A DNA stretch of 64,000 nucleotides from Escherichia phage vB_EcoM_ESCO32. The position numbers were made by a program, and so were the translations under genes. The notes beneath the pieces are model-generated. The model was not told the origin of the DNA and ran no database searches. It saw nothing but the letters and a program-made list of their open reading frames with translations. The DNA lies in sequence record OM386658.1, one strand, 5' to 3'. Below are positions 10,673 to 50,836 of the stretch, in pieces (the first letter of the stretch is position 1; every line of letters begins with the position of its first letter).

Positions 10673-10680
10673 GTTCTTAA

Positions 10681-12205: not shown

Positions 12206-13939
12206 TTAGTCAACCTGGATGGTTCCCATAGTACGAAGAACCTCTACATCAACACGGTTGCGGATATCAGTAAATGTTTCATCACGTCCTTCTACTTGTG
12301 GTGTAATAACCGTACCATCCCTGAAGATAACTTTTAACTCATTGTCTTCATCTTGGATATCTTTAAAAGAAAGATTATCCACAAGAGAAAGTTTACCGTT
12401 TGTATCCTTAACAACCTTAATAAAACCTTTTGCAGAGCGTTTACCAGGATCAGTTTTAGGCTCCTTACTTACCAAAATTTCGTGTTCACCGATGATACTA
12501 CCTGTTGCTTTAACAGCAAAACCAAAAGTATCTCGTGTATTGAACTGATAAGTATAACTACCAACACCAAATACAATATTGGAAGCTGCAAAACCTTTCT
12601 TCTTCAGTCGGCGTAAGATCTCGTGTTCTCGTTCAACAGTAATAGAATCACCATAAATCATACCGATGTGCTGATCAAGAACCTTGTAGCCTTTTCGGTT
12701 GATAGTACCACCAAACACTTCCCAAAGGATTTGAATAGAACCTACTGCTTCACAATAAGGAATCTCATAAGTTTCATCAATACAATCAGCAACACTGCAA
12801 TCCTGAAGAACATTGTAATACTTATTAACATCAGCCAAATGAACTACTTCAGTGGCTGTAGCAATACCATTATTTAAAAGGTCTTCATAGTTATCAAAAG
12901 ATTCAACATTGTATCCTGCAACAACTTTAACCGGATCTCCTGAATCTGGACGAATAACAAGACGACCATTTCGTGACATAATGGACTCTTTCAATTCTAC
13001 CAGAATGCGAGTCAAGACAGCCCAGTAATCATAAGAATCTGCTACATATGAACAAAAACCTTCTGGAACAATTTCTTCAATATAGCGGCGAAGAAACTCT
13101 TTCTCTGCTACATAACGAAGCCCATCAACATCATCTTTAAGATGTGGGAAATGTTTCTTCAGATCTTCAACAATAGCTCCAATGTTAGTCGTTGCTACTG
13201 AATGTTCTGTTGCCGGAATAGAACCTGCAACAAATTGATCATAATCAATACCATAGTAATCATGCACAGTTTCAATAGCCAGAATATTATCTGTTCCTGT
13301 GAAAGATGCCAAATGAGCGATACCACTCTTATAACCATCTTCGATATTGCTTAAGCCACGTAGACTAAAGTCATGACACTGGAAATTAACGTGATCAATG
13401 TTATCACACGTTGCCATCGCATACGCCATAGCGATACGCTTATACTGAAAAGCTGCTGTGGCATTAGTCATTGTCTTCCAAGTTTCATCTGACAAGAGTG
13501 TTTCCACATAGTTAGTTAACCAAAAGAATTTTTCTAAAGTGTTATGCACAGTAAACACAGGAACACCAATAGGACACAAAACACCTTCTGGCAGAGATCG
13601 AACTTCTAGCGGAAGATAACCTAAGTCGTGCAATTCTCCCCAACATTCAGCAGAAGGAGCAGAAGCACCTAATGCATTTTTAGACATACGGTAAAATTTA
13701 TTTACTGCTGCACTACGAGACATTTTAAAGAAGCTATCCCACATAGTTACAAGAGCATCAGTAACTGCTCGACGAATACCTAAAACAATTACACCACGTG
13801 CTTCACGATCTGCATAGTGTGCAAAGTTTTTATCATTACGAGGAGTTAAATTAGAGAAAATGAGTTTTGTATTTTGGTTGTACATCTGCTTGTGACCAGG
13901 CTTATACCAATCAGTAGCAAAAGGTGCAAAAATATTCAT
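12206..13939 (-). CDS. nicotinamide phosphoribosyltransferase-like enzyme (NAMPT family; Namat-type of phage NAD+ reconstitution pathway)
   Basis: 577 aa, NAMPT-like length and composition; immediately downstream of PRPP-synthetase-like gene, the arrangement described for phage NARP1. Confidence 0.75.
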   Translation of the reverse strand: MNIFAPFATDWYKPGHKQMYNQNTKLIFSNLTPRNDKNFAHYADREARGVIVLGIRRAVTDALVTMWDSFFKMSRSAAVNKFYRMSKNALGASAPSAECWGELHDLGYLPLEVRSLPEGVLCPIGVPVFTVHNTLEKFFWLTNYVETLLSDETWKTMTNATAAFQYKRIAMAYAMATCDNIDHVNFQCHDFSLRGLSNIEDGYKSGIAHLASFTGTDNILAIETVHDYYGIDYDQFVAGSIPATEHSVATTNIGAIVEDLKKHFPHLKDDVDGLRYVAEKEFLRRYIEEIVPEGFCSYVADSYDYWAVLTRILVELKESIMSRNGRLVIRPDSGDPVKVVAGYNVESFDNYEDLLNNGIATATEVVHLADVNKYYNVLQDCSVADCIDETYEIPYCEAVGSIQILWEVFGGTINRKGYKVLDQHIGMIYGDSITVEREHEILRRLKKKGFAASNIVFGVGSYTYQFNTRDTFGFAVKATGSIIGEHEILVSKEPKTDPGKRSAKGFIKVVKDTNGKLSLVDNLSFKDIQDEDNELKVIFRDGTVITPQVEGRDETFTDIRNRVDVEVLRTMGTIQVD

Positions 13940-14010: not shown

Positions 14011-14904
14011 TTAAAAATTCCACACGTATGGAGATACAATTTGTTGTTGCAAATCTGACTGATTCTTAACAAGAACACCGGAATCTTCTTGGATGTTATC
14101 TTCCCACACATTAAGAGAATGAATGCAGTCAAAGTGCTCACTTAACTCTTTAAGACCTTTAGAAAAGATACCGTGTGTAACATATAACTCAATCTTACCT
14201 GCGTTACGAGCACGTAGCACTTTAGCCAATTCAATAAAAGTTCTACCGCCGTCACAGATATCATCTACGATCATCAGGTTACGCTTATTGAAATCCTGTA
14301 CAGAAATGTCTGTACGAACAATAGCACCTGTTGCAGTATCTCTAACCTTCTCTGCACAGAACACATCTAAAGACATTTTCTTAGATAATTTAAATATTTT
14401 CTTAAGAGCACCACCATCAGGACTAACAAGAGCAAAATTCTCCATACGTAACTTCCACTTTAAAGTTTCGTAAGCAATCTCTTCTTGAGGTATTACACAG
14501 AGTCTGTCAAACACTGCTGGAGTAACATCACTATGTGGATCAGCAACGATAACACGTGAGAAATTTAATGAATTAATTATAGAAGCAAATGCTTTAACTC
14601 CGAATGCTTCCCCAGGTTCACACACTCTGTCTTGTCGTGCATATGGCACATACAACATGAGCAAATCAACACAATATGGTTTATGATATAGCATATTGTC
14701 CAATGCATTCTTAGTCATAACCAAAGTCATCAAGTCTTTAGCAGATCTTACTTCTAAAGAGAGTAAGATTCTGTCTGTAGCATGATTGAAACCTGATAGA
14801 TTCGTGTCTAGTTGAACATGTTGTTCTCCACCAGAGAACGTAAAGACTTTAACGTCTACATCAGTAACATAACAGTCAACACCATGTAGAATACTAACTT
14901 TCAT
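14011..14904 (-). CDS. ribose-phosphate pyrophosphokinase-like enzyme (Prs family; Adps-type of phage NAD+ reconstitution pathway)
   Basis: 297 aa; Prs-like motifs VSPDGGALKK and MIVDDICDGGRT (PRPP-binding loop); adjacent to NAMPT-like gene. Confidence 0.75.
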   Translation of the reverse strand: MKVSILHGVDCYVTDVDVKVFTFSGGEQHVQLDTNLSGFNHATDRILLSLEVRSAKDLMTLVMTKNALDNMLYHKPYCVDLLMLYVPYARQDRVCEPGEAFGVKAFASIINSLNFSRVIVADPHSDVTPAVFDRLCVIPQEEIAYETLKWKLRMENFALVSPDGGALKKIFKLSKKMSLDVFCAEKVRDTATGAIVRTDISVQDFNKRNLMIVDDICDGGRTFIELAKVLRARNAGKIELYVTHGIFSKGLKELSEHFDCIHSLNVWEDNIQEDSGVLVKNQSDLQQQIVSPYVWNF

Positions 14905-17447: not shown

Positions 17448-17810
17448 TTGATGTGCGCTACTAATCAACATGATATTTGTTACCAACCTCTCACTTGGAT
17501 TGGTGAGGATCACTATGCTCAACGTGTTATAGTCTGCGCTGCGAACAAGTATATTCTTAACAATGGCGAAGAGTTAATTATTCCTTGTGTTAGGCATGCA
17601 AATCCTGTACTATCTGCACAACTTAATGTTTTAAAAGATGCAGGATTGATCGATAAACTGTTTTGCTTACCTGATAATCAAGGGTTTATTGATCAGTATT
17701 ATAACTGGTGGAGTCGCAAAGATGCTTATGTCATTGCAGATAACGCCAAACAAATTAACTACGAAAGAAATGGTCACAACAGTGAACTATTCAGCGAGGG
17801 ATTATACTAA
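17448..17810 (+). CDS. hypothetical protein (Cys-containing)
   Basis: ORF track. Confidence 0.3.
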   Translation: MMCATNQHDICYQPLTWIGEDHYAQRVIVCAANKYILNNGEELIIPCVRHANPVLSAQLNVLKDAGLIDKLFCLPDNQGFIDQYYNWWSRKDAYVIADNAKQINYERNGHNSELFSEGLY

Positions 17811-18361
17811 TGTTTATTACAAGTGATTTGCATTTTATGCACAAACGTATCCGAGAGTTTGCTCCTGAATATCGCCCGTGGGAAGATATGGAGCATATGA
17901 CAGAAGCACTGATCGAAGCATGGAATAAATGTGCCACAACACCAGGAGTAAAGATGTACCATCTTGGGGACTTCTGTTTCGGGACTGAAGAAGATACCCG
18001 TAAGATTGCTTCCCGTCTCCAAGGGGATATTACTTACTGTGTTGGGAACCATGATTACAGTAAACACAGAAAAGTGCTTGCAGAGTATGGAGAAGTTGTG
18101 TATTATGACGAAGTGAAATATCAGAAGCTGTTCTTCGTCTTAAGTCATTACCCTATGGCTGCCTGGAATAAACAAGGGCATGGATCAATCATGCTACATG
18201 GACACTCTCACGGATCATTTCCTGATCATTTGTATGGGAAAATGTTGGATGTTGGTTGGGATGCACACGGGAAAATCTTGCATTTTGACGAAATCATCTC
18301 TATTATGGATAAGCGTGATATTATTGTTGTAGATCATCATAAGATAATCAAAGGAGATTAA
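17810..18361 (+). CDS. calcineurin-like metallophosphoesterase (putative RNA-end phosphatase of repair cassette)
   Basis: Motifs SDLHFMH, HLGDFCFG, GNHDY, HGHSH characteristic of metallophosphoesterases; directly upstream of RNA ligase and kinase. Confidence 0.6.
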   Translation: MFITSDLHFMHKRIREFAPEYRPWEDMEHMTEALIEAWNKCATTPGVKMYHLGDFCFGTEEDTRKIASRLQGDITYCVGNHDYSKHRKVLAEYGEVVYYDEVKYQKLFFVLSHYPMAAWNKQGHGSIMLHGHSHGSFPDHLYGKMLDVGWDAHGKILHFDEIISIMDKRDIIVVDHHKIIKGD

Positions 18362-18362
18362 T

Positions 18363-19295
18363 GTGGCTAAGTTCAATTGTGATGACCTGATTGCAAAAGG
18401 TTTAGTGCATAAAAAAGAAGTTAAGTCTGGAGAGTATGCTGGTCTTGCTGTACTTAAATACAAAAACAATGTATTCTGGGATAACTTGTGGAACGTTGAC
18501 AAACGACTTTTAGATTGTCGTGGGTTGGTTGTTGACTCAGAAGATAATATTGTTATTTGGCCTTTTACTAAAATCTTTAATCGTTTTGAGAATGGTACAG
18601 ATCTTCCAGGAGATGAATTTGTAGATGCTGTCCGTAAAGTAAATGGTTTTATGGCATCTGTAGGTGTGTACAAAGGGCAACTTGTTGTATCAACAACAGG
18701 GAGCCTAGAGTCAGACTTTGCAACTATTGCCAAGAACCGTATTGTTTCCGAGTGTGATGACATAGAGTATTTCATTAAGTGGACAGAAAGTGCAAAAGCA
18801 ACTTTCCTTTTTGAAATCTGTGATCCTTCTGATCCACATGTTGTCGAAGAAGAACCAGGCGCATACTTAATTGGAGCAAGAATTCAAAATCTTGATGGGA
18901 CAAGTTTCATGTTACCTGAAGGTGTTCTTGATGGGATTGCATCTATTACAAAGTTTAAACGTCCTGAAGTTTATCCGATGATTAAATTTTCAGATGTTGT
19001 TGAAATGTCTAAACATTGTAAACACGAAGGGTTTGTTGTTCGTGAAACAAACTACCCGTTTAACTTACTGTTAAAGATTAAGTCACCATACTATCTTGCT
19101 AAAAAATTCCTTATGCGTGGTGGCAATAAGAAGTGGGATATGATTTGGGACAACCCAAACAATGCTAAACAAATTGTTGACGAAGAATATTATACTTTGC
19201 TAGAATGGCTTCGAAACAACTTTACTAAGACTCAATGGGCTGCTTTAGATCCACAAGAGCGACGTAAAGAAATAGAAAACTTCTTTGGAGGCTAA
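18363..19295 (+). CDS. RNA ligase, T4 Rnl1-like
   Basis: GTG start; blocks DCRGLVV, WPFTKIFNRFEN, RKVNGFMAS (motif I with Asn in place of Asp), EGFVVR, LLLKIKSPYY align by eye with T4 RnlA motifs. Confidence 0.65.
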   Translation: MAKFNCDDLIAKGLVHKKEVKSGEYAGLAVLKYKNNVFWDNLWNVDKRLLDCRGLVVDSEDNIVIWPFTKIFNRFENGTDLPGDEFVDAVRKVNGFMASVGVYKGQLVVSTTGSLESDFATIAKNRIVSECDDIEYFIKWTESAKATFLFEICDPSDPHVVEEEPGAYLIGARIQNLDGTSFMLPEGVLDGIASITKFKRPEVYPMIKFSDVVEMSKHCKHEGFVVRETNYPFNLLLKIKSPYYLAKKFLMRGGNKKWDMIWDNPNNAKQIVDEEYYTLLEWLRNNFTKTQWAALDPQERRKEIENFFGG

Positions 19296-19700
19296 ATGAA
19301 ACAACTTATCATCTTACGTGGTGTTTCAGGTGCAGGTAAATCTACAGTAGCAGAAATTATTTCTGAAGGTTATTGGCCTATCTGTGAGGCAGATCAATAT
19401 CATTACACAGAAAGTGGTGTTTACGATTGGAAGCCAGAGAATGTAGGTAAAGCACACGCATGGTGTCAGAGTATTGTTCGTGATGCTATGGCATCTAATA
19501 TTAAAAAGATTATTGTCTCTAACACTTCAACCACAGAGAAAGAACTTAAACCTTATTTAACTCTTGCTGAAGAGTTTGGTTATCAAGTTATCTCTTTAGT
19601 AGTTGAAAATAGGCACGGTAACGACTCAATTCATGAGGTTCCACAACATATCCGTGATCAGCAAGAGAAACGTCTTCGCAGTTCACTTAAGCTACAATAA
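19296..19700 (+). CDS. polynucleotide 5'-kinase (T4 Pnk kinase-domain-like, P-loop)
   Basis: Walker A GVSGAGKST; VVSNTSTTEKELKPYLTLAEEFGYQV resembles T4 Pnk kinase domain. Confidence 0.6.
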   Translation: MKQLIILRGVSGAGKSTVAEIISEGYWPICEADQYHYTESGVYDWKPENVGKAHAWCQSIVRDAMASNIKKIIVSNTSTTEKELKPYLTLAEEFGYQVISLVVENRHGNDSIHEVPQHIRDQQEKRLRSSLKLQ

Positions 19701-20258: not shown

Positions 20259-20455
20259 GGTTAACTATGACATTTATTGAAGAACTAACGAGAATTGCAA
20301 ACGCGCCTAACAGTAGTGAAGATCCTTACTTTATGGTGGATGATTACACTGGTGGTAATATTGATGATGCCTATGAACTAGGCAGACTACACGGTGAAAT
20401 TGAAATGGCTAAATGGGTTCTTTCGCAACTGGAGGTTAAAGATGAAACAAACTAA
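20252..20455 (+). CDS. hypothetical protein
   Basis: ORF track. Confidence 0.3.
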   Translation: MVRLTMTFIEELTRIANAPNSSEDPYFMVDDYTGGNIDDAYELGRLHGEIEMAKWVLSQLEVKDETN

Positions 20456-21557
20456 TCCTACATTATATGGTAAAACTTCTACAGGTAAAATTAGACAGTG
20501 GTCAGTCTATACCGAAGGTAGTGTTGTAACTGTTGCTCATGGTCAATTAGGTGGAAAGATCACTAGCAAATCTTATACGGCAGAACCTAAAAATATTGGT
20601 CGCTCAAATGAAACAACAGCAGAAGAACAAGCTGAAATAGAAGCTCTTGCCAAATGGACAAAGCAACTTAAGAATGGGTACTATAAAACAAAAGAGGAAG
20701 CTGAAAACCATGTTCCTTCCACACCCATGAAATGTCAGGATTATAAAGATTATGCTGATCGTGTTTTGTTCCCTGGTTATGCACAATATAAATTGAATGG
20801 TCTACGTTCAATGATTAACATGCAAGGTGAATGTTTATCTAAAGCTGGGGAGGTATATAAACTTCCACCTCACTGGGAAGAAATTCCAACCTTCATTAAA
20901 GAAGTAGTTGGTCATCCTCTTGACGGTGAAGTTTTTGCTGGTTTGGGTGTCCTTAGCCTTCAACAAATTAATAGTGCGTGGAAAAAGCATAATGCTAACA
21001 CACCACTTCTTAAATACTATGTATATGATGTTCCTGTGGCATCTGTACCATTTGAGAAGAGGGTTCAAGTTTTGGCTGCTCTAAAAGAAGTTGTTGAAGA
21101 TAAAGGTTTAGATGAACTTATTTGTGTAGTACATACAGAGTACATTGAAAACCAAGAACAGTTTGATGCTTTCTATGCAAAAGCTCTACGTGAGAAAGCG
21201 GAAGGTGTGGTGTATCGTAACGCAAAAGGTGTTTACGAATTCGATAAACGTTCTTATGATGTTATTAAACGTAAACCACGGCAGACGCTTGAAGTTAAAG
21301 TGGTAAGTGCAAAGCGTGATAAAAATGGTGACGGGGTATTGACAGGAGAGATGGAAAATGGTAAAGTAGTCGAATTCCTGATGCGTAAGGATTCAGATGA
21401 AACCATTAACTATCGTAAAGAAGAAAATGCTTTGACACTTATTGGTCAATTTGTTGAAATAGAGTACGAAGAATTTTCAGACGAAGGTATTCCTACCAAG
21501 CCTGTTGGGGTACGTGTACGTAAGATGATTCCAGGTACTTGGGAACCAGCAGAGTAA
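20442..21557 (+). CDS. ATP-dependent DNA ligase (T7-like)
   Basis: ATG after GGAGG; motif I KLNGLR (Asn replaces canonical Asp), motif III LDGEVF, motif IV EGVVYR, motif V DVIKRK, C-terminal PVGVRVRK similar to T7 ligase. Confidence 0.7.
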   Translation: MKQTNPTLYGKTSTGKIRQWSVYTEGSVVTVAHGQLGGKITSKSYTAEPKNIGRSNETTAEEQAEIEALAKWTKQLKNGYYKTKEEAENHVPSTPMKCQDYKDYADRVLFPGYAQYKLNGLRSMINMQGECLSKAGEVYKLPPHWEEIPTFIKEVVGHPLDGEVFAGLGVLSLQQINSAWKKHNANTPLLKYYVYDVPVASVPFEKRVQVLAALKEVVEDKGLDELICVVHTEYIENQEQFDAFYAKALREKAEGVVYRNAKGVYEFDKRSYDVIKRKPRQTLEVKVVSAKRDKNGDGVLTGEMENGKVVEFLMRKDSDETINYRKEENALTLIGQFVEIEYEEFSDEGIPTKPVGVRVRKMIPGTWEPAE

Positions 21558-34770: not shown

Positions 34771-34968
34771 ATGATGCTAGATCAACTGATCAATGCTCCT
34801 CGCGTAACAGTAAGTCCAAAAACATTTGCATCACTTTTAGAAGATGCTAAAGAGGTTTATAACTTTACTGAAGAAGAGCTTCCTGTTCCTGTTGAAAAAG
34901 GTTCCAGATGGTTGTTTTATGAAGGTATTATTTTTACTGAAGGGAATAATTGGAAGGAGACTAAATGA
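34771..34968 (+). CDS. hypothetical protein
   Basis: Internal ATG after AAGGAGG. Confidence 0.3.
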   Translation: MMLDQLINAPRVTVSPKTFASLLEDAKEVYNFTEEELPVPVEKGSRWLFYEGIIFTEGNNWKETK

Positions 34969-35954
34969 AATACTTAGTAACAGGTGGTTTAGGCTTTATT
35001 GGAAGTGCGGTAGTTCGTTTCCTGGCTAAAAATACTAAGAACGATATTTACGTTATAGATAAATGGGGTTACGCTTCAGATCCTAGAAATTTAGCAGAAA
35101 CACCTAATGTAAAGTTTTGTCGTGTTGACTTGACAAATGCGCAGGTAACTGCTAAGATTGTGGCAGATGTTAATCCAGATTATATAATGCATCTTGCAGC
35201 AGAAAGTCACGTAGATAATTCAATAGCATCACCGAGTGTTTTTATAAATTCAAATATTGTTGGGACATTTAATCTTCTAGAAGCTGTTCGTTTAATGGGA
35301 GATAAATCAAATCTTAAAATGTTCCATCATATTTCAACAGATGAAGTGTATGGTGATCTGGAAGAAGGGGATTATCCGTTTACAGAACAGAATCCTTATA
35401 AGCCAAGTAGTCCATATGCTGCATCTAAGGCAGCAAGCGATCATTTGGTAAGAGCGTGGCATCGTACTTATGGTATTCCGACAGTTATAACAAATTGTTC
35501 AAATAATTTTGGAGCATATCATCATCCAGAAAAACTAATACCTAAAACGATAACAAATATCTTGATGCATAAACCAATCCCTGTTTATGGCAATGGTCTT
35601 CAAGTAAGAGATTGGTTATACGTTGACGATCACGCAGAAGCATTACACCTAGTAGTAACTAAAGGCAAATCTGGAGAAACATATAATATTGGGAGCAGAA
35701 ACCCTAGAACTAATATTGATGTAATCTATATGATTTGTGATTATATGGATGCGGTGTATCCATCTGAAACAGATGCTTGTAGCCTCATTGAGATGGTTAC
35801 AGATAGACCTGGACATGATTTAAGATATGAAGTGAATCCTTATAAGATTGAAAAGGAATTAGGGTGGAAAGCTAAAGGCACATTTGAAGAAAAACTTTAT
35901 TCAACCATTGATTGGTATGTAGATAACAAAGAGTGGTGGGAAAATAAAGTTTAA
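34965..35954 (+). CDS. rmlB: dTDP-glucose 4,6-dehydratase
   Basis: SDR fold: [10 protein letters not shown] Rossmann motif, YAASK catalytic YxxxK, typical length 329 aa. Confidence 0.85.
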
Positions 35955-35962
35955 GGAGGAGT

Positions 35963-36832
35963 ATGAAAGGTATTATCTTAGCAGGTGGTAGTGGAACAAG
36001 ACTTTACCCAGTTACTAAAGGGGTTAGTAAACAACTATTACCAATTTATGATAAGCCTATGATTTATTATCCGCTCTCTGTCCTAATGCTTTCTGGAATT
36101 AGGGAAATACTAATAATTACAACACCAGAAGATCAAATTAATTTTGTAAATCTTCTAGGTGATGGTTCTTCTTTTGGTATTTCCCTACAGTATGCAATAC
36201 AGGATAGCCCAAAAGGTTTAGCAGAAGCGTTTATTATTGGTGAGAACTTTATTGGTGAAGATTCTGTAGCACTTGTGCTAGGTGATAATTTATTCTTTGG
36301 TCAGAGTTTTGGTAGCATTTTAGATTCTGCTAAAGAACATATTGAAAAGAATGGTGGAGCTAATATTTTTGGGTATCACGTAAATGATCCTGAAAGATTT
36401 GGTGTTGTTGAGTTTGATTCTGAAGGTACAGTGGTGAGTATTGAAGAAAAACCAAAAGCACCAAAAAGCAACTACGCAATCACAGGCTTGTACTTTTACG
36501 ATAATTCTGTTATACAGAAAGCTAAGAGCGTTAAACCTTCTGCTAGAGGGGAGTTAGAGATTACAGATATAAATGAGATGTACTGGAAAGAAAAGACTTT
36601 ACGTGTCTGTAAACTAGGAAGAGGTTTCACTTGGCTGGATACAGGAACACATGAAAGTCTTATGGAAGCATCTCAATTTGTTCATGCAATAGAAAAGCAA
36701 CAAGGTATGAAGGTTGCATGCCTGGAAGAGATTGCTTTTAAAAATGAATGGATTACTTTAGACTCTGTAAAAAGTTCTGGAGAGGTTTTAAGTAAAACAG
36801 ACTACGGTAAGTATTTACTTAAATTAAAATAA
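35963..36832 (+). CDS. rmlA: glucose-1-phosphate thymidylyltransferase
   Basis: N-terminal [14 protein letters not shown] nucleotidyltransferase signature; 289 aa. Confidence 0.85.
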
Positions 36833-36844
36833 AGGGGGAATTAA

Positions 36845-37399
36845 ATGATTCAAGCAACAAAAATCGAAGATTTGTTGATCATTCAACCTGACGTTTACGG
36901 AGATGAACGTGGCTTTTTCTTAGAAAGTTTTAATCAGGCTTTATATGATCAATACATAGGTAAACAAAACTTTGTCCAAGATAACCATTCACGTTCTATT
37001 CGAGGAGTTCTACGTGGGCTTCATTTTCAAAAGAAAAACCCACAAGGGAAGTTAGTACGTTGTGTTCGTGGTGAAGTTTATGATGTTGCTGTAGATATTA
37101 GGGTTGGTAGTCCAACATTTGGAGAATGGGTAGGTGTTCTCTTATCTGAAAAGAATAAAACACAATTTTGGATTCCTCCTGGTTTCGCTCATGGCTTTGT
37201 TGTGATTAGTGACATTGCTGATTTTGAATATAAATGTACAGAATATTACGATCCGACTTCAGAGTGTAGTCTTGCGTGGAATGATCCAGATATCAATATT
37301 GATTGGGGTTTTGATTTAATCTTTAATGATATTAATTTTAAACCTATCTTGTCACAAAAAGATCAGGAAGCCAAAACACTAAAGGAGATCATATTTTGA
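36845..37399 (+). CDS. rmlC: dTDP-4-dehydrorhamnose 3,5-epimerase
   Basis: 184 aa cupin; DERGFFLE and HFQK motifs typical of RmlC. Confidence 0.8.
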   Translation: MIQATKIEDLLIIQPDVYGDERGFFLESFNQALYDQYIGKQNFVQDNHSRSIRGVLRGLHFQKKNPQGKLVRCVRGEVYDVAVDIRVGSPTFGEWVGVLLSEKNKTQFWIPPGFAHGFVVISDIADFEYKCTEYYDPTSECSLAWNDPDINIDWGFDLIFNDINFKPILSQKDQEAKTLKEIIF

Positions 37400-38226
37400 C
37401 AAAATTTTTAATCTTTGGTTCAAAAGGTCAATTAGGACAATCTTTGGCAAAAGTTGCACCAGAAGATGTTATTTTGATTGAAGCAAGTGATATAGACATT
37501 ACCAACTTTAAAGATGTTATGAATAGTCTTGTACAGCACGTGCCTGATGTTGTTGTGAATTGTGCGGCTTACACGGCAGTAGATAAAGCTGAAGAAGATG
37601 TTAACACCTGTATAAATGTTAATGCATACGGTGCAACAAACATTGCCAAAGCATGTAATGATTTACTGATACAGTTTGTACATATTTCAACAGACTATGT
37701 TTTTGATGGGCATGTTGCTGGCACAGAAGATAGTAAAACAAACCCCTTGAACACCTACGGTTACAGTAAACAATTAGGTGAAACTTTAGTACAAACAGTT
37801 TGTCCTACAGCACTTACTATCAGAACAGCTTCTGTTTATAGTGAATTTGGACATAACTTTTTGAAAACTATGTTGGAACGCTACAACGGTGGTCAAAAAG
37901 AATTTAATGTAGTATGTGATCATTTGTCGTGTCCTACTTATGCACCTGATCTTGCAGAAACAATTTTTAAACTTGTAAAAGATGGTGTAAATAGTAAAAT
38001 TGTACACTATGCAGGTGCAGATTATATTTCTTGGTATGATTTTGCACGAAAGATATTTCTTGTTATAGATTTATCTGTTACAGTTAATCCTGTATCTGCT
38101 TCAACCTATAATTCCAAAGCAGTCAGACCAGCAACATCTTATTTAAAAACAGATCCTACTTTAAATCCGCGAAGTGTTGATAGCGGTATTGTAAGAACTT
38201 TAACTATACTTTTAAACAAGGAGTGA
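37396..38226 (+). CDS. rmlD: dTDP-4-dehydrorhamnose reductase
   Basis: 276 aa SDR; GSKGQLG N-terminus, YGYSK catalytic motif; completes RmlB-A-C-D set. Confidence 0.75.
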   Translation: MTKFLIFGSKGQLGQSLAKVAPEDVILIEASDIDITNFKDVMNSLVQHVPDVVVNCAAYTAVDKAEEDVNTCINVNAYGATNIAKACNDLLIQFVHISTDYVFDGHVAGTEDSKTNPLNTYGYSKQLGETLVQTVCPTALTIRTASVYSEFGHNFLKTMLERYNGGQKEFNVVCDHLSCPTYAPDLAETIFKLVKDGVNSKIVHYAGADYISWYDFARKIFLVIDLSVTVNPVSASTYNSKAVRPATSYLKTDPTLNPRSVDSGIVRTLTILLNKE

Positions 38227-43481: not shown

Positions 43482-44054
43482 ATGCGTTTAGCTTTTAACG
43501 GGAAGATAAGCACAGCAAACATATTGTCAGCAGTAGGATTATTAGGTAAAAAATTCACACCTTTCAGTTTACCAGTTTGTGTAGATTTTGATCATGTGTT
43601 TGATATTAATAATCCTTCACGTTGTATCGCCAGAAGTAATATTGATAACCCAAGTGAAAATCTGTTTTATATTACTAAACCATCCCAAGCAATTTTGAAT
43701 CAATGGGAAGCAGGTCTGATTAAACCAGGTAAATATTTTGCATTACTACCTTGTAAATCATTGGCTATAGAGGACAGTCTAAACTATGCAAACAATCTTG
43801 TTGTTACAGCATTCATTGTCTCAGAAAAAGAAGAAACTGCGGCACTTGCAAACACTGTTAAATCTTTGTATGATGCTTTGGGTGTTACTTACACTACCTT
43901 CGTTTGTGAAGATATTCCACATTGCGTTGAATTCGTGGTGAATGGTGTAACTGTATGTCGTGTAGAAACAACTCAAGACGAAGACGTTTTTATTACTGTA
44001 GCCGATGTAATATCTGAACCTGTGTTTAGTTACGCAGTTTCATTAACACATTAA
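43482..44054 (+). CDS. hypothetical protein
   Basis: ORF track. Confidence 0.35.
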   Translation: MRLAFNGKISTANILSAVGLLGKKFTPFSLPVCVDFDHVFDINNPSRCIARSNIDNPSENLFYITKPSQAILNQWEAGLIKPGKYFALLPCKSLAIEDSLNYANNLVVTAFIVSEKEETAALANTVKSLYDALGVTYTTFVCEDIPHCVEFVVNGVTVCRVETTQDEDVFITVADVISEPVFSYAVSLTH

Positions 44055-44064
44055 GGAGAAGGGG

Positions 44065-44391
44065 ATGAAAATAACGACAGAACAGGCTTTAATAGACAAA
44101 GGAAGGGAAATCTTAGAAAGTCATTTGGAGGATATTCAAAGGACTCCAGGGTATCTCGGCTGGCGTATACAAGAAGCCGTCGATTTTCTACCCCGTAAAA
44201 ATAAAGAGATTGAAGTAAGATCTCTATTCCTCCTTGTTAAAGTAGATGGTGACGCTATATACAAAGATGTAGCGTCTCACATTGAACAAATAGAAGAAAA
44301 AGCCTACAAAGAATTTGCAGATCTTGTTGTAGAACATAATATAGAAGGTAAAGTTAATATCTTTATACTTATGGATTTTGAGGAGAGTTGA
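44065..44391 (+). CDS. hypothetical protein
   Basis: ORF track. Confidence 0.3.
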   Translation: MKITTEQALIDKGREILESHLEDIQRTPGYLGWRIQEAVDFLPRKNKEIEVRSLFLLVKVDGDAIYKDVASHIEQIEEKAYKEFADLVVEHNIEGKVNIFILMDFEES

Positions 44392-45134
44392 TGTTAGTAT
44401 ATCAAGAAATTAGTGTAAAAGATGATCAAGACCTGTTTATTATTGGTGATTTACATGGTTGCTTTGATTTGTATCAGAAGGGTGTTAATACTTTAGGTAT
44501 CCGAGATCAAGATGTTGTTGTATCTTTAGGAGATCTTACAGATCGCGGCAAGCAGAATTTTCGTTGTGTTGTTGAATTCACCAGAAAGCTAAATCGTTAT
44601 GGTATTCGTGGAAATCATGAAGATATGATGATTAAAGGGTTGCTAGAAGGTGATAGACGATATTACGAATGTTGGTTTCAGAACGGAGGCCATACAGTTC
44701 TAGACGAGTGTGGAGAAGAGGGTGCAACTGCTCTTGCTTTGATGCTAGAAGATTTACCTGTTGTACTTGTTGTCAATTATCGTAATATGAAACTAGGCTT
44801 TATTCACGGTGGGTATCCTTCAGTTTTGGAACATTTACCAGTAACAGAAGTTTTGCCATTTTGTTTGAATATGAATAAAGAGCAAGTTTCTCGATTCACA
44901 GAATCTTTAATGTGGGATCGTGATATGATAGATTGCGCACTTGAAGGGATTCTTCTTCCTAGGGTTTCAGGAGTAGATTATGTATTTCACGGGCATTCTT
45001 ATGTTCCTAAACCTGTAATTAGCAGTAATAGGGTATATATGGACACAGGATCTTGCTTCAATGGTAATTTAACCTTTGCATATTTTGATGATTCAAATAC
45101 GTTACAATTTTATTCTACTTTAGAGGAGGATTAA
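44388..45134 (+). CDS. Ser/Thr protein phosphatase (PPP-family metallophosphatase)
   Basis: GDLHGC, GDLTDRG, GNHE signature triad. Confidence 0.75.
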   Translation: MMLVYQEISVKDDQDLFIIGDLHGCFDLYQKGVNTLGIRDQDVVVSLGDLTDRGKQNFRCVVEFTRKLNRYGIRGNHEDMMIKGLLEGDRRYYECWFQNGGHTVLDECGEEGATALALMLEDLPVVLVVNYRNMKLGFIHGGYPSVLEHLPVTEVLPFCLNMNKEQVSRFTESLMWDRDMIDCALEGILLPRVSGVDYVFHGHSYVPKPVISSNRVYMDTGSCFNGNLTFAYFDDSNTLQFYSTLEED

Positions 45135-45454
45135 TGTATAAAATCACAATTAAAGAAACAGTAGGAGAACTTACGAAAGAAACTACTATTGAGACGGAAG
45201 ATGTTGAGTTAGTCCAAGAGCTTTTATTTCCAAAACCAGAAATAAAAGACAATGATGAACAGTTGGATGAAGATAATGAGACAGCAAGGGATAAATGGAA
45301 GAAACAATTAGCGGAGATTTGGAAAAAGCCTGAAGTAACTCCTCCATACGATCCTCGTAGACCTTATTATCCTTGGGAAATTGGAAGCCCTTGGTTTACG
45401 TACCCTATTACTCCAATTGTTAATCCAATTGTTACTCCCAATATTACTTGTTAA
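45134..45454 (+). CDS. hypothetical protein with Pro-rich C-terminus
   Basis: ORF track. Confidence 0.3.
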   Translation: MYKITIKETVGELTKETTIETEDVELVQELLFPKPEIKDNDEQLDEDNETARDKWKKQLAEIWKKPEVTPPYDPRRPYYPWEIGSPWFTYPITPIVNPIVTPNITC

Positions 45455-45464
45455 GGAGAAAACC

Positions 45465-46043
45465 ATGAGCGATTTATTCTACACAGGTGTTGGTAGCAGA
45501 GATATTACAGACGAAGAATGGGATACTATGGTATCTGTTGCAAAATGGTTATCTACATGGTTCATTTTGCGGTCTGGTAAAGCAGAAGGTGCAGATTCCG
45601 CATTTGAATGCGGGGTATATGATAGTGGGAACAATACGAAGAAAGAAATATACATCCCTTGGCTCTCGTTTAAAGGTAATGAGATAGAGGGAGAGGTTAT
45701 TGTTCTTGACAGACCAGATAGTGTAAACTATGCTTTAACCTTACAATATGCAAAAGAATTGCATCCAGCTTGGGACAGATTATCTCAAGGTGCTAAAAAA
45801 TTACATCAAAGAAATATCCACCAAGTTCTTGGAAGAGATCTTGAGAATCCAAAACCATCTTGTTTTCTTTTAGCTTGTGCAAATACAGATAAAAATGGAG
45901 ATCCTTTAGGTGGTACAAGAACAGCTTGGATGTTGGCTAAAAAGTTTAATGTCCCTTGTTTTAATATTCGAGGTAAAAGTAAAAAACAAATTTTCGAATT
46001 TATTAAGCCTATTTTAGAGGAGAATGGTCTTGTCCAGAAATAA
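45465..46043 (+). CDS. DprA/Smf-like SLOG-domain protein
   Basis: YTGVGSRDI...LRSGKAEGADSAFECG resembles DprA Rossmann motifs; ATG after AAGGAG. Confidence 0.45.
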   Translation: MSDLFYTGVGSRDITDEEWDTMVSVAKWLSTWFILRSGKAEGADSAFECGVYDSGNNTKKEIYIPWLSFKGNEIEGEVIVLDRPDSVNYALTLQYAKELHPAWDRLSQGAKKLHQRNIHQVLGRDLENPKPSCFLLACANTDKNGDPLGGTRTAWMLAKKFNVPCFNIRGKSKKQIFEFIKPILEENGLVQK

Positions 46044-46548
46044 TATAAGCGTCATTAAAGATAGTTTTATTGATGTAACAAACGATATTGTACCTACAAT
46101 ACAATATATAGTTGAGGCACAAGGTTTAAACTTTATACGTGATAAAGTTAAGATTGTTTTTCATAACACTCCAGGTTTTGTAATAGTAGATTCAACAAAA
46201 ACGATGTATCCTACAGATCTGATTACTTTAGACAAAAACTTAACACAAGAAGAAGTAGAAATTCTTAACCTCTATTGGTTAGGTTTTAAAAGATACGAGG
46301 ATACAGCTTTATCCCGAATGTCAACTATTTTAGCTAACATTCTGGTTCGGAAAATTTCTAAACTATGGGATGAAGAAAACCCAGATGAAATAGTTTTACA
46401 CTTTGCTAAACCGGAAGACGGGGCATATGATATAGACACATCTGAAATGGCTTACGGGTTTATTATTTCTGGTAATGTATTACAGATGGAATCTTTATTG
46501 TATGTTGAGACAGTAAAACACAATAACAACTACGAGGAGGTTGTATGA
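46024..46548 (+). CDS. hypothetical protein
   Basis: ORF track. Confidence 0.3.
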   Translation: MVLSRNNISVIKDSFIDVTNDIVPTIQYIVEAQGLNFIRDKVKIVFHNTPGFVIVDSTKTMYPTDLITLDKNLTQEEVEILNLYWLGFKRYEDTALSRMSTILANILVRKISKLWDEENPDEIVLHFAKPEDGAYDIDTSEMAYGFIISGNVLQMESLLYVETVKHNNNYEEVV

Positions 46549-46802
46549 AAGGTTTAGAGTTTAACTTTGTAGATGCGTGGGAAGGATGGGATGAACTAGG
46601 AGTAGGGGATTTATGTTTTTATGATGTTACCTTGAAGGAAGAATACAAACATCTAGCTCCTAGTGAAGATTGCGATGTGATTCTATCTATCCTATTAAGT
46701 CAGTCTATAGTGCAATTTGATTTTCTAAAAGGTAGTGAGTGTATTGAAAGTAAAGCATTCCGTTTAGAAGTTTCTCTTGGTGAAGAAGTTCCTGTAGAAT
46801 AA
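46545..46802 (+). CDS. hypothetical acidic protein
   Basis: ORF track. Confidence 0.3.
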   Translation: MKGLEFNFVDAWEGWDELGVGDLCFYDVTLKEEYKHLAPSEDCDVILSILLSQSIVQFDFLKGSECIESKAFRLEVSLGEEVPVE

Positions 46803-46805: not shown

Positions 46806-46830
46806 AAACCCGCTTCGGCGGGTTTTTTGT
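46806..46830 (+). terminator. rho-independent terminator (CCCGC-TTCG-GCGGG plus T6)
   Basis: Strong hairpin followed by TTTTTTG. Confidence 0.7.
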
Positions 46831-47297: not shown

Positions 47298-48287
47298 ATG
47301 AAAGTTTTAAGTCTTTTTGATGGTATGTCAGGAGGAATGCTTGCGCTAAAAAGTGCAGGTATTGAAGTAGATACATATTATGCTTCAGAATTAGACAAAT
47401 TCGCCATAGCTGAAAGCCAAGCAAATTTTCCAGATATTATTCAGTTAGGTGATGTTACAAAATGGAGAGAATGGGATATTCCGTGGGGAGAAATTGATCT
47501 TTTGTTAGGTGGTAGTCCGTGTCAAGGCTTCTCTTCTTCTGGTAAGGGTTTGAACTTTCAAGATCCGCGATCTAAGCTATTCTTCGAATATGTTGAGATT
47601 CTTGAACATATTAAAAAGTTTAACCCTAATGTTAAGTTCATGCTTGAAAACGTTAAGATGAAAGTGGAGTGGGAAAACGTGATCACAAGTTACTTAGGTG
47701 TTGATCCCGTATTCATTAACTCCGCAGATTTCACGGCACAAAATAGACAACGTTTATACTGGTGCAACTGGGAAATAAAACCTTGGGATATTACCAATGA
47801 AGTGTTGCAAGATATCATTGAAGATGATAGTATCGTAGACAGAGATAAGGCTTATTGCATAGATGCAAATTATGCCAAAGGTGGTAATATAGAACAGTAT
47901 TTTGAAAAGAGTCGCAGACAACTGGTTTTTTATCCGGCAGCAATATATGGGCGTAGAATTAATGAAAATGGTAAACGTAGTACATCTAAAACTGATCGTT
48001 TGGTACATTGTTTGGAAGTTCAGGACAGTGAAAAAACTCGTTGCCTCACGACTGTGCCTAAAGACGTACTATTAGCCTACATTCCACCTGGAAGATATCT
48101 AGATGCCTTTGAAAAATTGAGTGAAGGCGTACATTATAGAAAGTTAACGGTTAAAGAGTGTTGCCGCTTGCAAGGTGTGCCAGATGATTACTTTAAAGTG
48201 AGTAGTAACACACAAGCATATAAGATGTTAGGCAATGGTTGGACTATACCTGTCATTGCACATATTCTTAAATGTATGGAGGAATAA
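47298..48287 (+). CDS. DNA cytosine-5 methyltransferase
   Basis: Motif I LFDGMSGG, motif IV GGSPCQGFS (catalytic Cys), motif VI ENV. Confidence 0.8.
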   Translation: MKVLSLFDGMSGGMLALKSAGIEVDTYYASELDKFAIAESQANFPDIIQLGDVTKWREWDIPWGEIDLLLGGSPCQGFSSSGKGLNFQDPRSKLFFEYVEILEHIKKFNPNVKFMLENVKMKVEWENVITSYLGVDPVFINSADFTAQNRQRLYWCNWEIKPWDITNEVLQDIIEDDSIVDRDKAYCIDANYAKGGNIEQYFEKSRRQLVFYPAAIYGRRINENGKRSTSKTDRLVHCLEVQDSEKTRCLTTVPKDVLLAYIPPGRYLDAFEKLSEGVHYRKLTVKECCRLQGVPDDYFKVSSNTQAYKMLGNGWTIPVIAHILKCMEE

Positions 48288-48410: not shown

Positions 48411-49019
48411 ATGACTCAAAAAGTTGCATATCAAGTAGATCGTGAAGATGGTGAAGGTAGTGTTGTAGTTTTTGATACACATGGCCTTGCAGCAAGACGC
48501 AAAGGAGCTTGTCTACTGGACATTGGTGGTGAAGATGAATACTGCACTGTACGTAGAGTAAAAGAATTTGATCAATATGCTGAAAAAGGTTTTGTACCTG
48601 TGAAAGCACTATTAGAAGCTGGATGGTGGATACCTAGTGCACATGATTATGATATTTTGGAAGATACAGATGAATTCAACAGCGAGGATTTTGTTTTTTC
48701 TCTGGATGAAAAATGCGTTTGGAAAGACTGGGATGAAATGGAACGCCATGCTTATTTTATAAACGAAGCATTAGATCGTAAAACTTGGTTTGAAAATACA
48801 GTTAAAGCAGCGTATCCTCAATTTACTTTTACACAGTTTTGGGGTGGCCCACATCATATTACTCATACAGCATATTTCGAGTTCCCAGGTTCACGTTATA
48901 AAGGTACTGTTTATTGGGATTGGGACGAGGACAAAGAACCTTCTGCTCAAGACTTCCGTTGCTATGTTTGTCAAGGTGATCAAGAAGCCCTTGACAAGTA
49001 CCTTAAAAGTCTGGTATAA
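48411..49019 (+). CDS. hypothetical protein (Trp/acidic-rich)
   Basis: ORF track. Confidence 0.35.
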   Translation: MTQKVAYQVDREDGEGSVVVFDTHGLAARRKGACLLDIGGEDEYCTVRRVKEFDQYAEKGFVPVKALLEAGWWIPSAHDYDILEDTDEFNSEDFVFSLDEKCVWKDWDEMERHAYFINEALDRKTWFENTVKAAYPQFTFTQFWGGPHHITHTAYFEFPGSRYKGTVYWDWDEDKEPSAQDFRCYVCQGDQEALDKYLKSLV

Positions 49020-49035
49020 TCCGTAAAACTTAACC

Positions 49036-49063
49036 AAAGCCCCCAGGCAGGGGCTTTATTTGT
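49036..49063 (+). terminator. rho-independent terminator (GCCCC-loop-GGGGC plus T-tract)
   Basis: Hairpin followed by TTTATTTGT. Confidence 0.5.
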
Positions 49064-49074: not shown

Positions 49075-49605
49075 ATGGGTTTTGATGACATGTTATTATA
49101 TGAGGAGGCTTGTGTGAAAGAAGCTATGGCTTTACCAGTTTTATCTATTGATATTACAACAGTAGACACTTTTTCAGATTGTGAAACGTGTGGATCGTAT
49201 TCGTCTATTGTACATGAGGTTAGTGGGGATTTAGGCACTTACGAAGATGGAGATTATGCAAGTTGTTTAGGTGATAATCGAGATGGTGAAGTGGCGAATG
49301 TTGCAAACTGGATTGCTTCTAAGTTAAAAGAAAGAAATCGTCCGTTCCCTAATCTTCTTACACCAGAAGCTATGCTTAAAGCTGAACAAGAGATGTATGA
49401 TTATGGTTATAAAGTAGATTATGACTATAATGATCCTAAATATAAAAAATTGAGTGACAAGTATTGGGAACTAGCTAATGCTTATGATAAATACTACTCT
49501 ACAGAAAACATTGTTAAATTGTTTTTAGATTTTGGAGTAGAAATTAATTGGGATTTCGAAGAGGAAGAGCGTTACGACGCATCTTCTTGGGATGATGATT
49601 ACTAA
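49075..49605 (+). CDS. hypothetical acidic protein
   Basis: Internal ATG after GGAGAAT. Confidence 0.35.
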   Translation: MGFDDMLLYEEACVKEAMALPVLSIDITTVDTFSDCETCGSYSSIVHEVSGDLGTYEDGDYASCLGDNRDGEVANVANWIASKLKERNRPFPNLLTPEAMLKAEQEMYDYGYKVDYDYNDPKYKKLSDKYWELANAYDKYYSTENIVKLFLDFGVEINWDFEEEERYDASSWDDDY

Positions 49606-49616
49606 GAGGATATTGA

Positions 49617-50429
49617 ATGCGAAGAGTAATTTTTGTTAGTGGCGCAGGTTTAAGTGCAGACAGTGGGATTCGAACGTTCCGAACAGACACAGATAGTGGT
49701 CGTGCCTTATGGGAAGAATATGACTTAGAAGAGGTCTGCGATATTGGAGCTTTCCAAGCAGGTTATCGTGTGAGAACATCTCCAGATCTTCCAGTGGTCG
49801 GTGGTGTAGACGAGAACGGTATGGACTTGTATGCCAAAACACACGAATTTTATAACAAAAGACGTGTTGAGCTTAAAGATGTACAACCTAATGCTGCACA
49901 TATTCAAATAGCAAGGTGGTTTAAGGAATATCCTAACCAAGTAGTAAACTTGACAACAAACGTTGATGACCTACTAGAGCGAGCAGGTGTAGACAGGGAT
50001 TCTGTTATTCACGTGCACGGATATCTTCCTGAAGTAGTTTACCGTATGCATCCTGGAGATTACAAAACACTGGTAGACATTGGTTACAATAGTATAAACA
50101 TAGATGATTATAACTGGGTGAAGCCTAATGTTGTATTTTTTGGTGAGGCTGCACCTTTGTATGCAGATATGGCTCACTTGTTTGATACTTTGACCATGCA
50201 AGATTTGGTTGTTGTAGTAGGATGTTCAAACCAAGTTATCAATTTTAATTGGGAATTATTCCCTGCACTTAATATGGGTACAAAAATGATCGTTGTTAAC
50301 CCAGGAATTAATTACGAAGAAACTCTTCTTTACGAAGATAGAGGAGTCTTTGTTTATAGAGAAAAGGCAGCAGATGCTTTTAGCAATCCTGCTTTCATAA
50401 AAATGATAGAAGATCATTTGACTAAGTAA
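49617..50429 (+). CDS. SIR2-family (sirtuin-like) NAD+-dependent enzyme lacking zinc-ribbon module
   Basis: GAGLSADSGIRTFR NAD-binding signature, QPNAAHIQIA, TTNVDDLL, catalytic HVHG, VVFFGE, VVVGCS; no CxxC pairs. Confidence 0.7.
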   Translation: MRRVIFVSGAGLSADSGIRTFRTDTDSGRALWEEYDLEEVCDIGAFQAGYRVRTSPDLPVVGGVDENGMDLYAKTHEFYNKRRVELKDVQPNAAHIQIARWFKEYPNQVVNLTTNVDDLLERAGVDRDSVIHVHGYLPEVVYRMHPGDYKTLVDIGYNSINIDDYNWVKPNVVFFGEAAPLYADMAHLFDTLTMQDLVVVVGCSNQVINFNWELFPALNMGTKMIVVNPGINYEETLLYEDRGVFVYREKAADAFSNPAFIKMIEDHLTK

Positions 50430-50435
50430 CTTAAC

Positions 50436-50460
50436 CAAGGGGGCGAAAGCCCCTTTTCTT
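50436..50460 (+). terminator. rho-independent terminator, GGGGC-GAAA-GCCCC hairpin plus T-tract
   Basis: Third copy of the repeated tetraloop hairpin. Confidence 0.6.
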
Positions 50461-50473
50461 ATAGGAGAATATT

Positions 50474-50731
50474 ATGACCACAGAACAAATCGTTAAAGAC
50501 CATTTTATGATGCACTACGTTTATTACTTCAATAATAATCAACAGAAAGGTGAGGGATTTTGTTATCTATCTGCACAACAAGGTTTTGGTATCCGTCAAG
50601 CAGATATTAACGGGGCAGTGGCTGGGATTACAAAAGGCTTGGTTGCAAACCTTAAAGACAATGTTGTTGTTGTCCCAACATGCATCTCTTATCTCTCAAC
50701 CTGTCCTGAAGAAGATTTTATGCATTCCTAA
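50474..50731 (+). CDS. hypothetical protein
   Basis: ORF track; RBS AGGAG. Confidence 0.35.
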   Translation: MTTEQIVKDHFMMHYVYYFNNNQQKGEGFCYLSAQQGFGIRQADINGAVAGITKGLVANLKDNVVVVPTCISYLSTCPEEDFMHS

Positions 50732-50797: not shown

Positions 50798-50836
50798 AAA
50801 AGCCCCTAGAAGCGATTCTAGGGGCTTTATTTTAGT
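50798..50836 (+). terminator. long hairpin (CCCCTAGA-loop-TCTAGGGG) plus T-tract at convergent block boundary
   Basis: Perfect 8-bp arms followed by CTTTATTTTA; lies between convergent plus and minus blocks. Confidence 0.55.

Follow-up and report, generated by a model that had tools for sequence, protein, structure and literature searches.

Previous studies have described a distinct clade of sirtuins that is widespread in proteobacterial phages, with V5, Mydo, SP15, and Serratia BF as prototypes (Iyer, Burroughs, Anantharaman, and Aravind 2022; PMC9503650). The homolog of phages KVP40 and phiSt2 was modeled on Escherichia coli CobB, and the loss of zinc was reported for it together with a deacetylase model for this zinc-less type of protein and a measurement of its transcript during infection (Skliros et al. 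2016; PMC5107563); the same study linked phage Sir2 to the recycling of nicotinamide by NAMPT and placed genes for the synthesis of nicotinamide adenine dinucleotide (NAD+) on the same genomes. A pathway that rebuilds NAD+ from ADP-ribose and nicotinamide, NARP1, has been demonstrated with Adps (gp79) and Namat (gp80) of phage Bas63. Here, we analyzed the sirtuin gene at positions 49617..50429 (plus strand) of a 64,000-nucleotide (nt) stretch of Escherichia phage vB_EcoM_ESCO32 (OM386658.1), referred to below as the window. The window belongs to a phi92-like coliphage of Justusliebigvirus (Stephanstirmvirinae). More than 50 deposited genomes match the 4 kb surrounding the gene at 98% identity, and deposited annotations of the phi92 gp38-type gene read "Sir2-like protein," "sirtuin family protein," or "Sir2-like transferase." An initial annotation, made from the sequence alone, had singled out the gene as a SIR2-family member without a zinc ribbon on a genome that also rebuilds NAD+. 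Both that observation and its core interpretation had been published before: the loss of zinc and the co-residence with NAD+ salvage (2016), the RNA-repair proposal (2022), and the annotation of the gene itself are all known. The present analysis adds the co-variation of zinc loss with the NAD site, a Marinobacterium branch of the family, the self-contained nature of the gene cassette, and a conserved early-type promoter. NAD+ is a central battleground between phages and bacterial immunity, and to learn whether the sirtuin edits host protein acylation, repairs RNA, or consumes NAD+ would fill a real gap.

The gene is an intact open reading frame (ORF) of 270 amino acids, the ortholog of phi92 gp38 and of bas61_0186 in EmilieFrey (Bas61), with an AAGAGGA Shine-Dalgarno sequence 7 nt 5' of its ATG. 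It matched the Pfam SIR2 model PF02146 (E = 3e-22; 79.9 bits against a cutoff of 24) and, over residues 1 to 269, PHROG 2162 "Sir2" (2.5e-105), and both the Rossmann domain and the small domain of the sirtuin fold were recognized. All of the sirtuin motifs quoted in the initial annotation were found, namely, GAGLSADSGIRTFR (residues 9 to 22), TTNVDDLL (residues 113 to 120), HVHG (residues 132 to 135), and VVFFGE (residues 172 to 177). The key residues are thus the GAGxS NAD loop (residues 9 to 22), the YxxR pair Y79/R82, T114-N115-V116-D117, the catalytic H134, F174-F175-G176-E177, G202-C203-S204, and N228-P229. In an alignment of 25 phage homologs, G9-A10-G11-S13, F21-R22, N115, D117, and H134 were invariant, as were the FGE and (V/I)NP walls of the acyl-lysine tunnel and the class III anion-recognition pair Y79/R82. 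The stretch F78-Y79-N-K-R82-R83 aligns with FYNARR of CobB. In SIRT5, the corresponding YxxR pair (Y102/R105) binds acidic acyl groups, and the role of this motif in SIRT5 and CobB is well established. A 29-residue insertion (residues 47 to 74) varies between lineages and is missing from Mydovirus-type members. Judged by these residues, the ORF very probably encodes a catalytically competent sirtuin of the phage clade.

The second part of the initial annotation, that the four-cysteine zinc module of classical deacetylases is missing, held as well. The protein contains two cysteines in total (C41 and C203) and none between H134 and K169, the usual site of the four-Cys ribbon; the same cysteines were missing in 25 of 25 aligned homologs. 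No cysteine occurs in the 34 residues that separate the catalytic HG from KPNVVFFGE, the place of Cx2C...Cx2C in sirtuins, and the ribbon is therefore truly missing rather than overlooked. In the structure model, the former zinc module is kept as a Cys-free beta-hairpin (strands 135 to 143 and 151 to 154). Of the 2,172 sequences found by an exhaustive phmmer search among 1.84 billion representatives, the 136 best full-length ones were aligned. The catalytic His was present in 136 of these 136 representatives and YxxR in 102. Among the relatives with no or almost no ribbon cysteines, T or S replaced the Q of the canonical QNID motif in 37 of 37, and S, A, or C replaced the Thr of the canonical GTS motif in 34 of 37; relatives with at least three ribbon cysteines, in contrast, had Q and T at these positions without exception (69/69 in each case). 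The GTS position had played no part in defining the two groups. The rest of the active site (N115, D117, H134, G135, F21/R22, F175, and S204) was kept in both. The window sirtuin, with T114-N-V-D and G202-C203-S204, departs from the canonical QNID and GTS motifs in the same way as the zinc-less group. The coupling of zinc loss to substitutions in two NAD-contacting motifs (QNID to TNVD and GTS to G[S/A/C]S) is a real signature of the clade at the level of sequence.

Among sirtuins of solved structure, the best sequence relative was E. coli CobB (E = 3.7e-18, or 1e-24 with the family profile), followed by Sir2Af1/2, SIRT5, and Sir2Tm. When the predicted fold was compared, the values against the phage sirtuin were 21.2 for Sir2Af1, 19.0 for PfSir2A, 18.3 for SIRT4, and 17.7 for Hst2; 14.8 to 15.0 for SirTM and 14.5 for PsSIR2; and 12.3 for the SIR2 domain of Nezha, 12.2 for KomC, 11.7 for ThsA, and 10.2 for Avs5. 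In both its sequence and its modeled fold, the protein is closest to deacylase sirtuins (CobB, Sir2Af1, and SIRT5) and not to the defense NADase SIR2 domains or to SirTM. A housekeeping ortholog of CobB whose ribbon had merely been missed, the case that the initial annotation had set against its own proposal, did not arise: identity to E. coli CobB is 25 to 26%, the NCBIfam CobB/deacylase models scored far below their cutoffs (NF001753, 106.3 bits versus 243; NF040867 [CobB], 86.4 versus 320), and the best cellular relative, from Marinobacterium, is 41% identical. A SIR2 of the defense type was likewise rejected. The sole PADLOC match (PDC-S65; E = 0.0073 over 37 residues) was insignificant, no match of the ORF to Pfam SIR2_2 was found at E values of up to 0.1, and neither a fusion to nor a neighboring gene for a sensor or partner (SLOG, HerA, STAND, pAgo, or TIR) was found around this stand-alone 270-residue protein, whose neighbors are unrelated. 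TTNVD resembles the TTNYD of SIR2_2 defense domains, a resemblance that we treat as a lead and not as evidence.

The physiological reaction that we favor is an NAD+-dependent deacylation of proteins, probably at lysines bearing acidic or short acyl groups, and we assign it a probability of roughly 45%. In the proposed mechanism, the sirtuin would bind NAD+, and an oxygen nucleophile of the substrate would attack C1' of the nicotinamide ribose, so that nicotinamide leaves; H134 would then activate the 2'-OH and thereby resolve the intermediate. The nucleophile would most probably be the carbonyl of an acyl-lysine, whose acidic or short acyl group would be held by Y79/R82, and the net reaction would be the deacylation of a protein with the formation of O-acyl-ADP-ribose. 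The role of such an enzyme would be to remodel the acylation of host or phage proteins early in infection, and the nicotinamide released in stoichiometric amounts could be reused by Namat. We count as tentative support for deacylation the invariant catalytic residues, the acidic character of the clade, the autonomy of the cassette and the conservation of its promoter and terminator (all described below), and the deacetylase model of Skliros et al. (2016). Several considerations weigh on the other side. No published biochemical data for any member of the clade were found in the literature, nor were experiments on the T5, rV5, or phi92 sirtuins. Sir2La (PDB 5OL0) was considered as a precedent for an active deacylase without zinc and was set aside, as its preprint does not describe a missing zinc site. 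The clade departs from every characterized deacylase at two NAD-contacting motifs, and because both of these changes co-vary with the loss of zinc, its chemistry or substrate may have shifted. Finally, the RNA-repair proposal of Iyer et al. gains support from rV5-like and Mydovirus phages, in which the gene is surrounded by those for RNA ligase, Pnk, phosphoesterase, and DNA ligase.

According to that proposal, the phage sirtuin would function in RNA-end repair in the manner of KptA/Tpt1, transferring ADP-ribose from NAD+ onto an RNA 2'-phosphate and releasing nicotinamide and then ADP-ribose 1''-2'' cyclic phosphate, after which the phage RNA ligase would reseal tRNAs cut by anticodon nucleases of the host. 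Iyer et al. reported that the sirtuin of jumbo and T5-like phages is linked to 2H, Nudix, cREC, or HAD genes (PMC9503650), and its linkage to RNA repair is confirmed by the gene orders of two genomes. In the rV5-like phage EmilHeitz, divergently oriented genes for polynucleotide kinase (Pnk) and phosphoesterase come first, then RNA ligase and, separated from it by one hypothetical gene, the sirtuin; three more hypothetical genes lie between the sirtuin and DNA ligase. In Mydovirus BIS47, three hypothetical genes separate RNA ligase from the sirtuin, which is followed by DNA ligase. The window genome also encodes an RNA-repair cassette (17810..19700, plus strand; phosphoesterase at 17810-18361, RNA ligase at 18363-19295, and P-loop Pnk at 19296-19700) as well as 15 tRNA genes, and Y79/R82 and H134 would be compatible with a phosphate nucleophile and activation of the 2''-OH. 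However, the cassette is followed contiguously by a DNA ligase gene (20394-21557) with no sirtuin between, and the window sirtuin lies 30 kb downstream of it in its own promoter-to-terminator unit, outside any RNA-repair neighborhood. The sirtuin of the T5-like phage IrisVonRoten is found between nrdD and a primase gene, with no annotated RNA ligase nearby. Linkage to RNA repair is therefore specific to certain lineages. Moreover, the clade is uniformly acidic (median isoelectric point [pI], 4.94; net charge, about -13; n = 120), as would be expected more readily of an enzyme that acts on a protein or small molecule than of one that acts on RNA; this is a weak argument against a direct RNA substrate. 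The T4-type Pnk and Rnl pathway heals 2',3'-cyclic phosphate ends and leaves no 2'-phosphate, and we know of no sirtuin that has been shown to act on RNA. We regard RNA-end repair as the chief rival of deacylation but as an unlikely function of the window sirtuin.

The remaining alternatives concern what else might be done with NAD+. The initial annotation had proposed an NAD+ glycohydrolase or another manipulator of NAD+ or ADP-ribose working with NARP1, for example, host shutoff or superinfection exclusion by cleavage of NAD+ while the phage rebuilds NAD+ from ADP-ribose and nicotinamide. The defense NADase SIR2 domains also lack a zinc ribbon, and the substitutions in the NAD site of the phage proteins are specific to the clade. 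The genes for the two NARP1 enzymes are indeed on the same genome, adjacent to each other: Adps, an ADP-ribose pyrophosphokinase resembling PRPP synthetase and the first enzyme of the pathway (14011..14904, minus strand), is 35% identical to Bas63 gp79 over 226 amino acids, and Namat, the NAMPT-like nicotinamide ADP-ribose transferase that acts second (12206..13939, minus strand), is 39% identical to Bas63 gp80 over its full length. The 15 tRNA genes (minus strand, 8713-11460) lie directly downstream of this pair. The claim that the sirtuin is next to the pair did not stand, since about 35 kb separate them and they are on opposite strands; in Mydovirus BIS47, the distance is about 5 kb. In the portion of the NARP1 tables that was available, the phi92 and EmilieFrey orthologs are given as Adps and "Adps-associated" Namat, and phi92-like and Mydovirus phages carry both the sirtuin and NARP1. 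T5-like and rV5-like carriers of the sirtuin were found neither among the entries listed in that portion nor in a spread sample of the 1,824 Namat hits, a qualitative comparison. Those 1,824 phage records with Namat/NAMPT homologs span many lineages, FelixO1-like, Pseudomonas, Staphylococcus, Listeria, Bacillus, and ICP1 phages among them, and most of the sampled Namat-bearing lineages differ from the lineages that carry the sirtuin in the sampled sirtuin hits. Within these partial and qualitative data, consistent co-occurrence or linkage of the sirtuin with NARP1 was not found. The deliberate coupling to NAD+ rebuilding that had been suggested is thus weak, the loci being distant and the T5-like and rV5-like carriers absent from the listed entries, and no dedicated pathway is seen beyond a possible reuse of nicotinamide by Namat. 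Skliros et al. (2016; PMC5107563) did tie phage Sir2 to nicotinamide recycling by NAMPT; a free NADase, on the other hand, would oppose the demonstrated role of NARP1, and we regard it as improbable. A dedicated ADP-ribosyltransferase that modifies protein or nucleic acid during an early hijack of the host, by analogy to SirTM, would agree with the early-type promoter, which is typical of host-takeover functions, with the clade-specific changes in the NAD site, and with the fact that sirtuin chemistry can end in ADP-ribosylation. SirTM-type partners were not found: there was no Pfam macro or GcvH match among the neighbors of the sirtuin, and the model of the adjacent gp39-like protein contained no such fold. 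We consider a dedicated transferase improbable as well. A broader version of these ideas, which we also think unlikely, is that the zinc-less T/S-NVD sirtuins might form a distinct enzyme class, marked by the loss of the Cys ribbon and the changes from QNID to TNVD and from GTS to G[S/A/C]S, that would use NAD+ on an anionic nonprotein substrate (RNA ends on which host nucleases have left a 2'-phosphate, for example, or an immune signal derived from ADP-ribose) and would carry out no protein deacylation. If this were true, the sirtuin would be a counterdefense enzyme expressed early, and NARP1, where present, could recycle the nicotinamide and ADP-ribose that it gives off as by-products.

The autonomy that we count in favor of deacylation is apparent from the local gene order. 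A terminator (46806-46825) and, after it, a promoter-like site lie ahead of orf46885, a Dcm-like C5 cytosine DNA methyltransferase gene (47298..48287, plus strand; Pfam, 1.4e-43), and the gene for a gp41-like acidic protein (48411..49019, plus strand; 202 amino acids, pI 4.62, PHROG 8514), which belongs to the upstream transcription unit. A perfect sigma-70 promoter (48991..49020, plus strand; TTGACA-18-TATAAT with an extended -10 TG, 12 of 12 positions) overlaps the gp41 stop codon, and transcription of the gp39-sirtuin unit is predicted to start from it. The first gene of this unit encodes a gp39-like acidic protein (49075..49605, plus strand; 176 amino acids, pI 4.05, PHROG 9509) that is co-transcribed with the sirtuin in Stephanstirmvirinae only; the two acidic proteins and the methyltransferase that had been noted upstream of the sirtuin are thus all present. 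Directly 3' of the sirtuin stop codon is a hairpin resembling an intrinsic terminator (50437..50455, plus strand), which is annotated as a terminator in phage Paula. A GC-rich hairpin, AAAGCCCC-loop-GGGGCTTT (49036..49057), follows the promoter within about 15 nt and scores as a terminator on both strands. The order of promoter and then hairpin is unusual, and Phapecoctavirus has it too. Such a hairpin may terminate upstream transcripts that would otherwise run on from gp41, serve as a 5' stabilizing stem-loop, or both.

These elements were compared with those of the Phapecoctavirus phAPEC8_ev052 (locus L088). The promoter is present there at the same position (11 of 12) amid flanking nucleotides that are only 69% identical, the hairpin is kept with compensatory changes, and the terminator after the sirtuin is at the same position. 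Because promoter, hairpin, and terminator are conserved in this way, the sirtuin should be transcribed early, by unmodified host RNA polymerase. The sirtuin and its terminator (49615-50478 in the window; 3493-4358 in L088) are 92% identical in nucleotides and 97% in amino acids, whereas the flanking proteins are only 38% (gp39), 69% (gp41), and 47% (gp37) identical, giving a sharp mosaic boundary; other Phapecoctavirus sirtuins are only 65 to 69% identical. This pattern of identities indicates a recent exchange of a self-contained sirtuin cassette between the two genera, and because the sirtuin is 97% and gp39 38% identical in the same comparison, the sirtuin and gp39 do not co-evolve. We therefore rejected gp39 and gp41 as obligate partners of the sirtuin; both are restricted to Stephanstirmvirinae, and neither co-evolves with it. 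Indeed, gp39-like genes occurred in 136 and gp41-like genes in 153 phage records (sirtuin, 989), essentially Stephanstirmvirinae, gp41 was also found in phages without a sirtuin, and neither was found beside the sirtuin in T5-like, rV5-like, or Mydovirus loci.

Four cysteines of the gp39-like protein (C13, C36-x2-C39, and C64) are invariant and may form a zinc site, and the confident AlphaFold2 model of the protein (a beta-hairpin, a helical bundle, and an acidic tail) had no recognizable structural relative. The label that this protein carries in BASEL, "putative aminoacyl-tRNA synthetase," seems to be based only on a subthreshold match to PhetRS_B1 (E = 0.03). Its stop codon is the TAA at 49603-49605. 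The 184-amino-acid cluster representative P0271 (98% identical; 183 members) extends beyond this point by EEDIECEE, and in relatives of this type the gp39 stop and the sirtuin start overlap by 13 nt, so that translation of the two may be coupled there; in the window, EmilieFrey, and Paula, the tail is truncated. Downstream of the sirtuin, a gp37-like protein (50474..50731, plus strand; 85 amino acids, PHROG 15991) is encoded by the last gene of the rightward block, and the rightward and leftward gene blocks converge at a strong bidirectional terminator (50799-50828). Of the three genes in an accessory block farther upstream (43482-46043), one is named "histidyl tRNA synthetase" by PHROG and lacks Pfam support, another encodes a NinI-like phosphoesterase of the calcineurin type (44388-45134), and the third encodes a DprA-like protein (45465-46043; PHROG 768) that has no Pfam match and, judged by eye, may contain a SLOG-type nucleotide-binding domain. 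Calcineurin-like phosphoesterases have been reported as occasional neighbors of phage sirtuins (PMC9503650). A complete phage dTDP-rhamnose operon, recognized by synteny with EmilieFrey and containing genes for dTDP-glucose 4,6-dehydratase, glucose-1-phosphate thymidylyltransferase, 3,5-epimerase, and 4-dehydrorhamnose reductase, occupies 34965-38226.

A tblastn search of 50,697 phage records found homologs of the sirtuin in 989, and 918 of these homologs were nearly full length, so that about 2% of sequenced phage genomes carry the gene, including T5-, rV5-, and phi92-like therapy and BASEL phages; the carriers are T5-, rV5-, phi92-, Mydovirus-, and KVP40-like. Identity to the window sirtuin was 65 to 99% in Justusliebigvirus and Phapecoctavirus (99.6% in phage arall), 52 to 60% in T5-like Demerecviridae, 56% in Mydovirus, 48% in rV5-like Vequintavirus, and 30 to 40% in Vibrio (about 38%), Yersinia, and Klebsiella jumbo phages. 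Coverage was at least 98% in the rV5-like, Mydovirus, and T5-like alignments, and homology within the clade thus extends over the full length of the protein. In the T5-like phage DT57C (NC_027356), only a 36-residue fragment of the sirtuin matched (46526-46636), although the locus is annotated as sir2; some T5-like phages may have seen their sirtuin decay or be replaced, and the gene would then be dispensable. Several records labeled "Campylobacter phage" with C. jejuni as the host (MG065639, MG065645, MG065656, MG065689, and others) were 98 to 99% identical to E. coli phi92-like or rV5-like phages at these loci and are probably mislabeled or contaminant assemblies.

The cellular relatives were sought in one genome per species from 185,579 species. 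No relatives of the sirtuin were found in Enterobacteriaceae among these genomes. The best match was a chromosomal gene of Marinobacterium (38 to 41% identity; our loci L008-L030) that is conserved throughout the genus and has the same T[T/S]NVD, Cys-free, and FYNxRR state as the phage clade; single further matches were obtained in one Haliea and one Bacilli metagenome-assembled genome. Since the closest cellular relatives are from Marinobacterium and none are from Enterobacteriaceae, the phage gene did not arise by a recent capture of cobB from the host. The context of the Marinobacterium gene was set aside as a functional hint, its neighbors (a GGDEF-EAL protein, AIM24, and unassigned ORFs) being uninformative.

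How the window sirtuin stands toward each of the known systems can now be stated. We know of no experimental evidence linking any sirtuin to a reaction of the KptA/Tpt1 type. KptA/Tpt1 has an ART-like (ADP-ribosyltransferase-like) fold and not the Rossmann fold of a sirtuin, and the phage protein is acidic. KptA/Tpt1 would be a functional analog only; the likeness lies in the equivalent chemistry proposed by Iyer et al., i.e., an NAD+-dependent transfer of ADP-ribose to an anionic oxygen, release of nicotinamide, and attack by the 2''-OH. With the defense SIR2 NADases (ThsA, DSR1/2, SIR2-HerA/Nezha, Avs5-SIR2, and KomC), the phage sirtuin shares a SIR2 core of the Rossmann type in which Asn and His are conserved. 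Both also lack a canonical zinc ribbon and take part in the phage-host conflict over NAD+. The initial annotation had taken zinc loss as a sign of SIR2 domains of the NADase or ADP-ribosyltransferase type. This argument fails because SirTM shows the pattern opposite to that of the phage sirtuin, and no significant PADLOC match spoke for it. SirTM, a dedicated ADP-ribosylating class, keeps the zinc domain and has Gln in place of the catalytic His, along with a conserved Arg as its partner (PMC4518038), and it is encoded with a macrodomain protein and GcvH-L. The phage sirtuin is the reverse, with H134 invariant, the zinc cysteines gone, and no such partners. Relative to other members of its own clade, the window sirtuin is found in a gp39-sirtuin unit that ends a rightward block and not by RNA ligase and Pnk genes or nrdD. 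With CobB and the class III sirtuins, it has in common GAGxSxxSG..FR..W, FYxxRR (YxxR), the catalytic N, D, and H, and the FGE loop; it differs from them in the absence of the zinc cysteines, in TNVD for QNID and GCS for GTS, and in a longer cofactor loop (nine residues from FR to W versus five). Rather than representing CobB itself, the clade descends from class III (CobB/SIRT5-like) sirtuins, and the ORF of the window is a divergent class III derivative.

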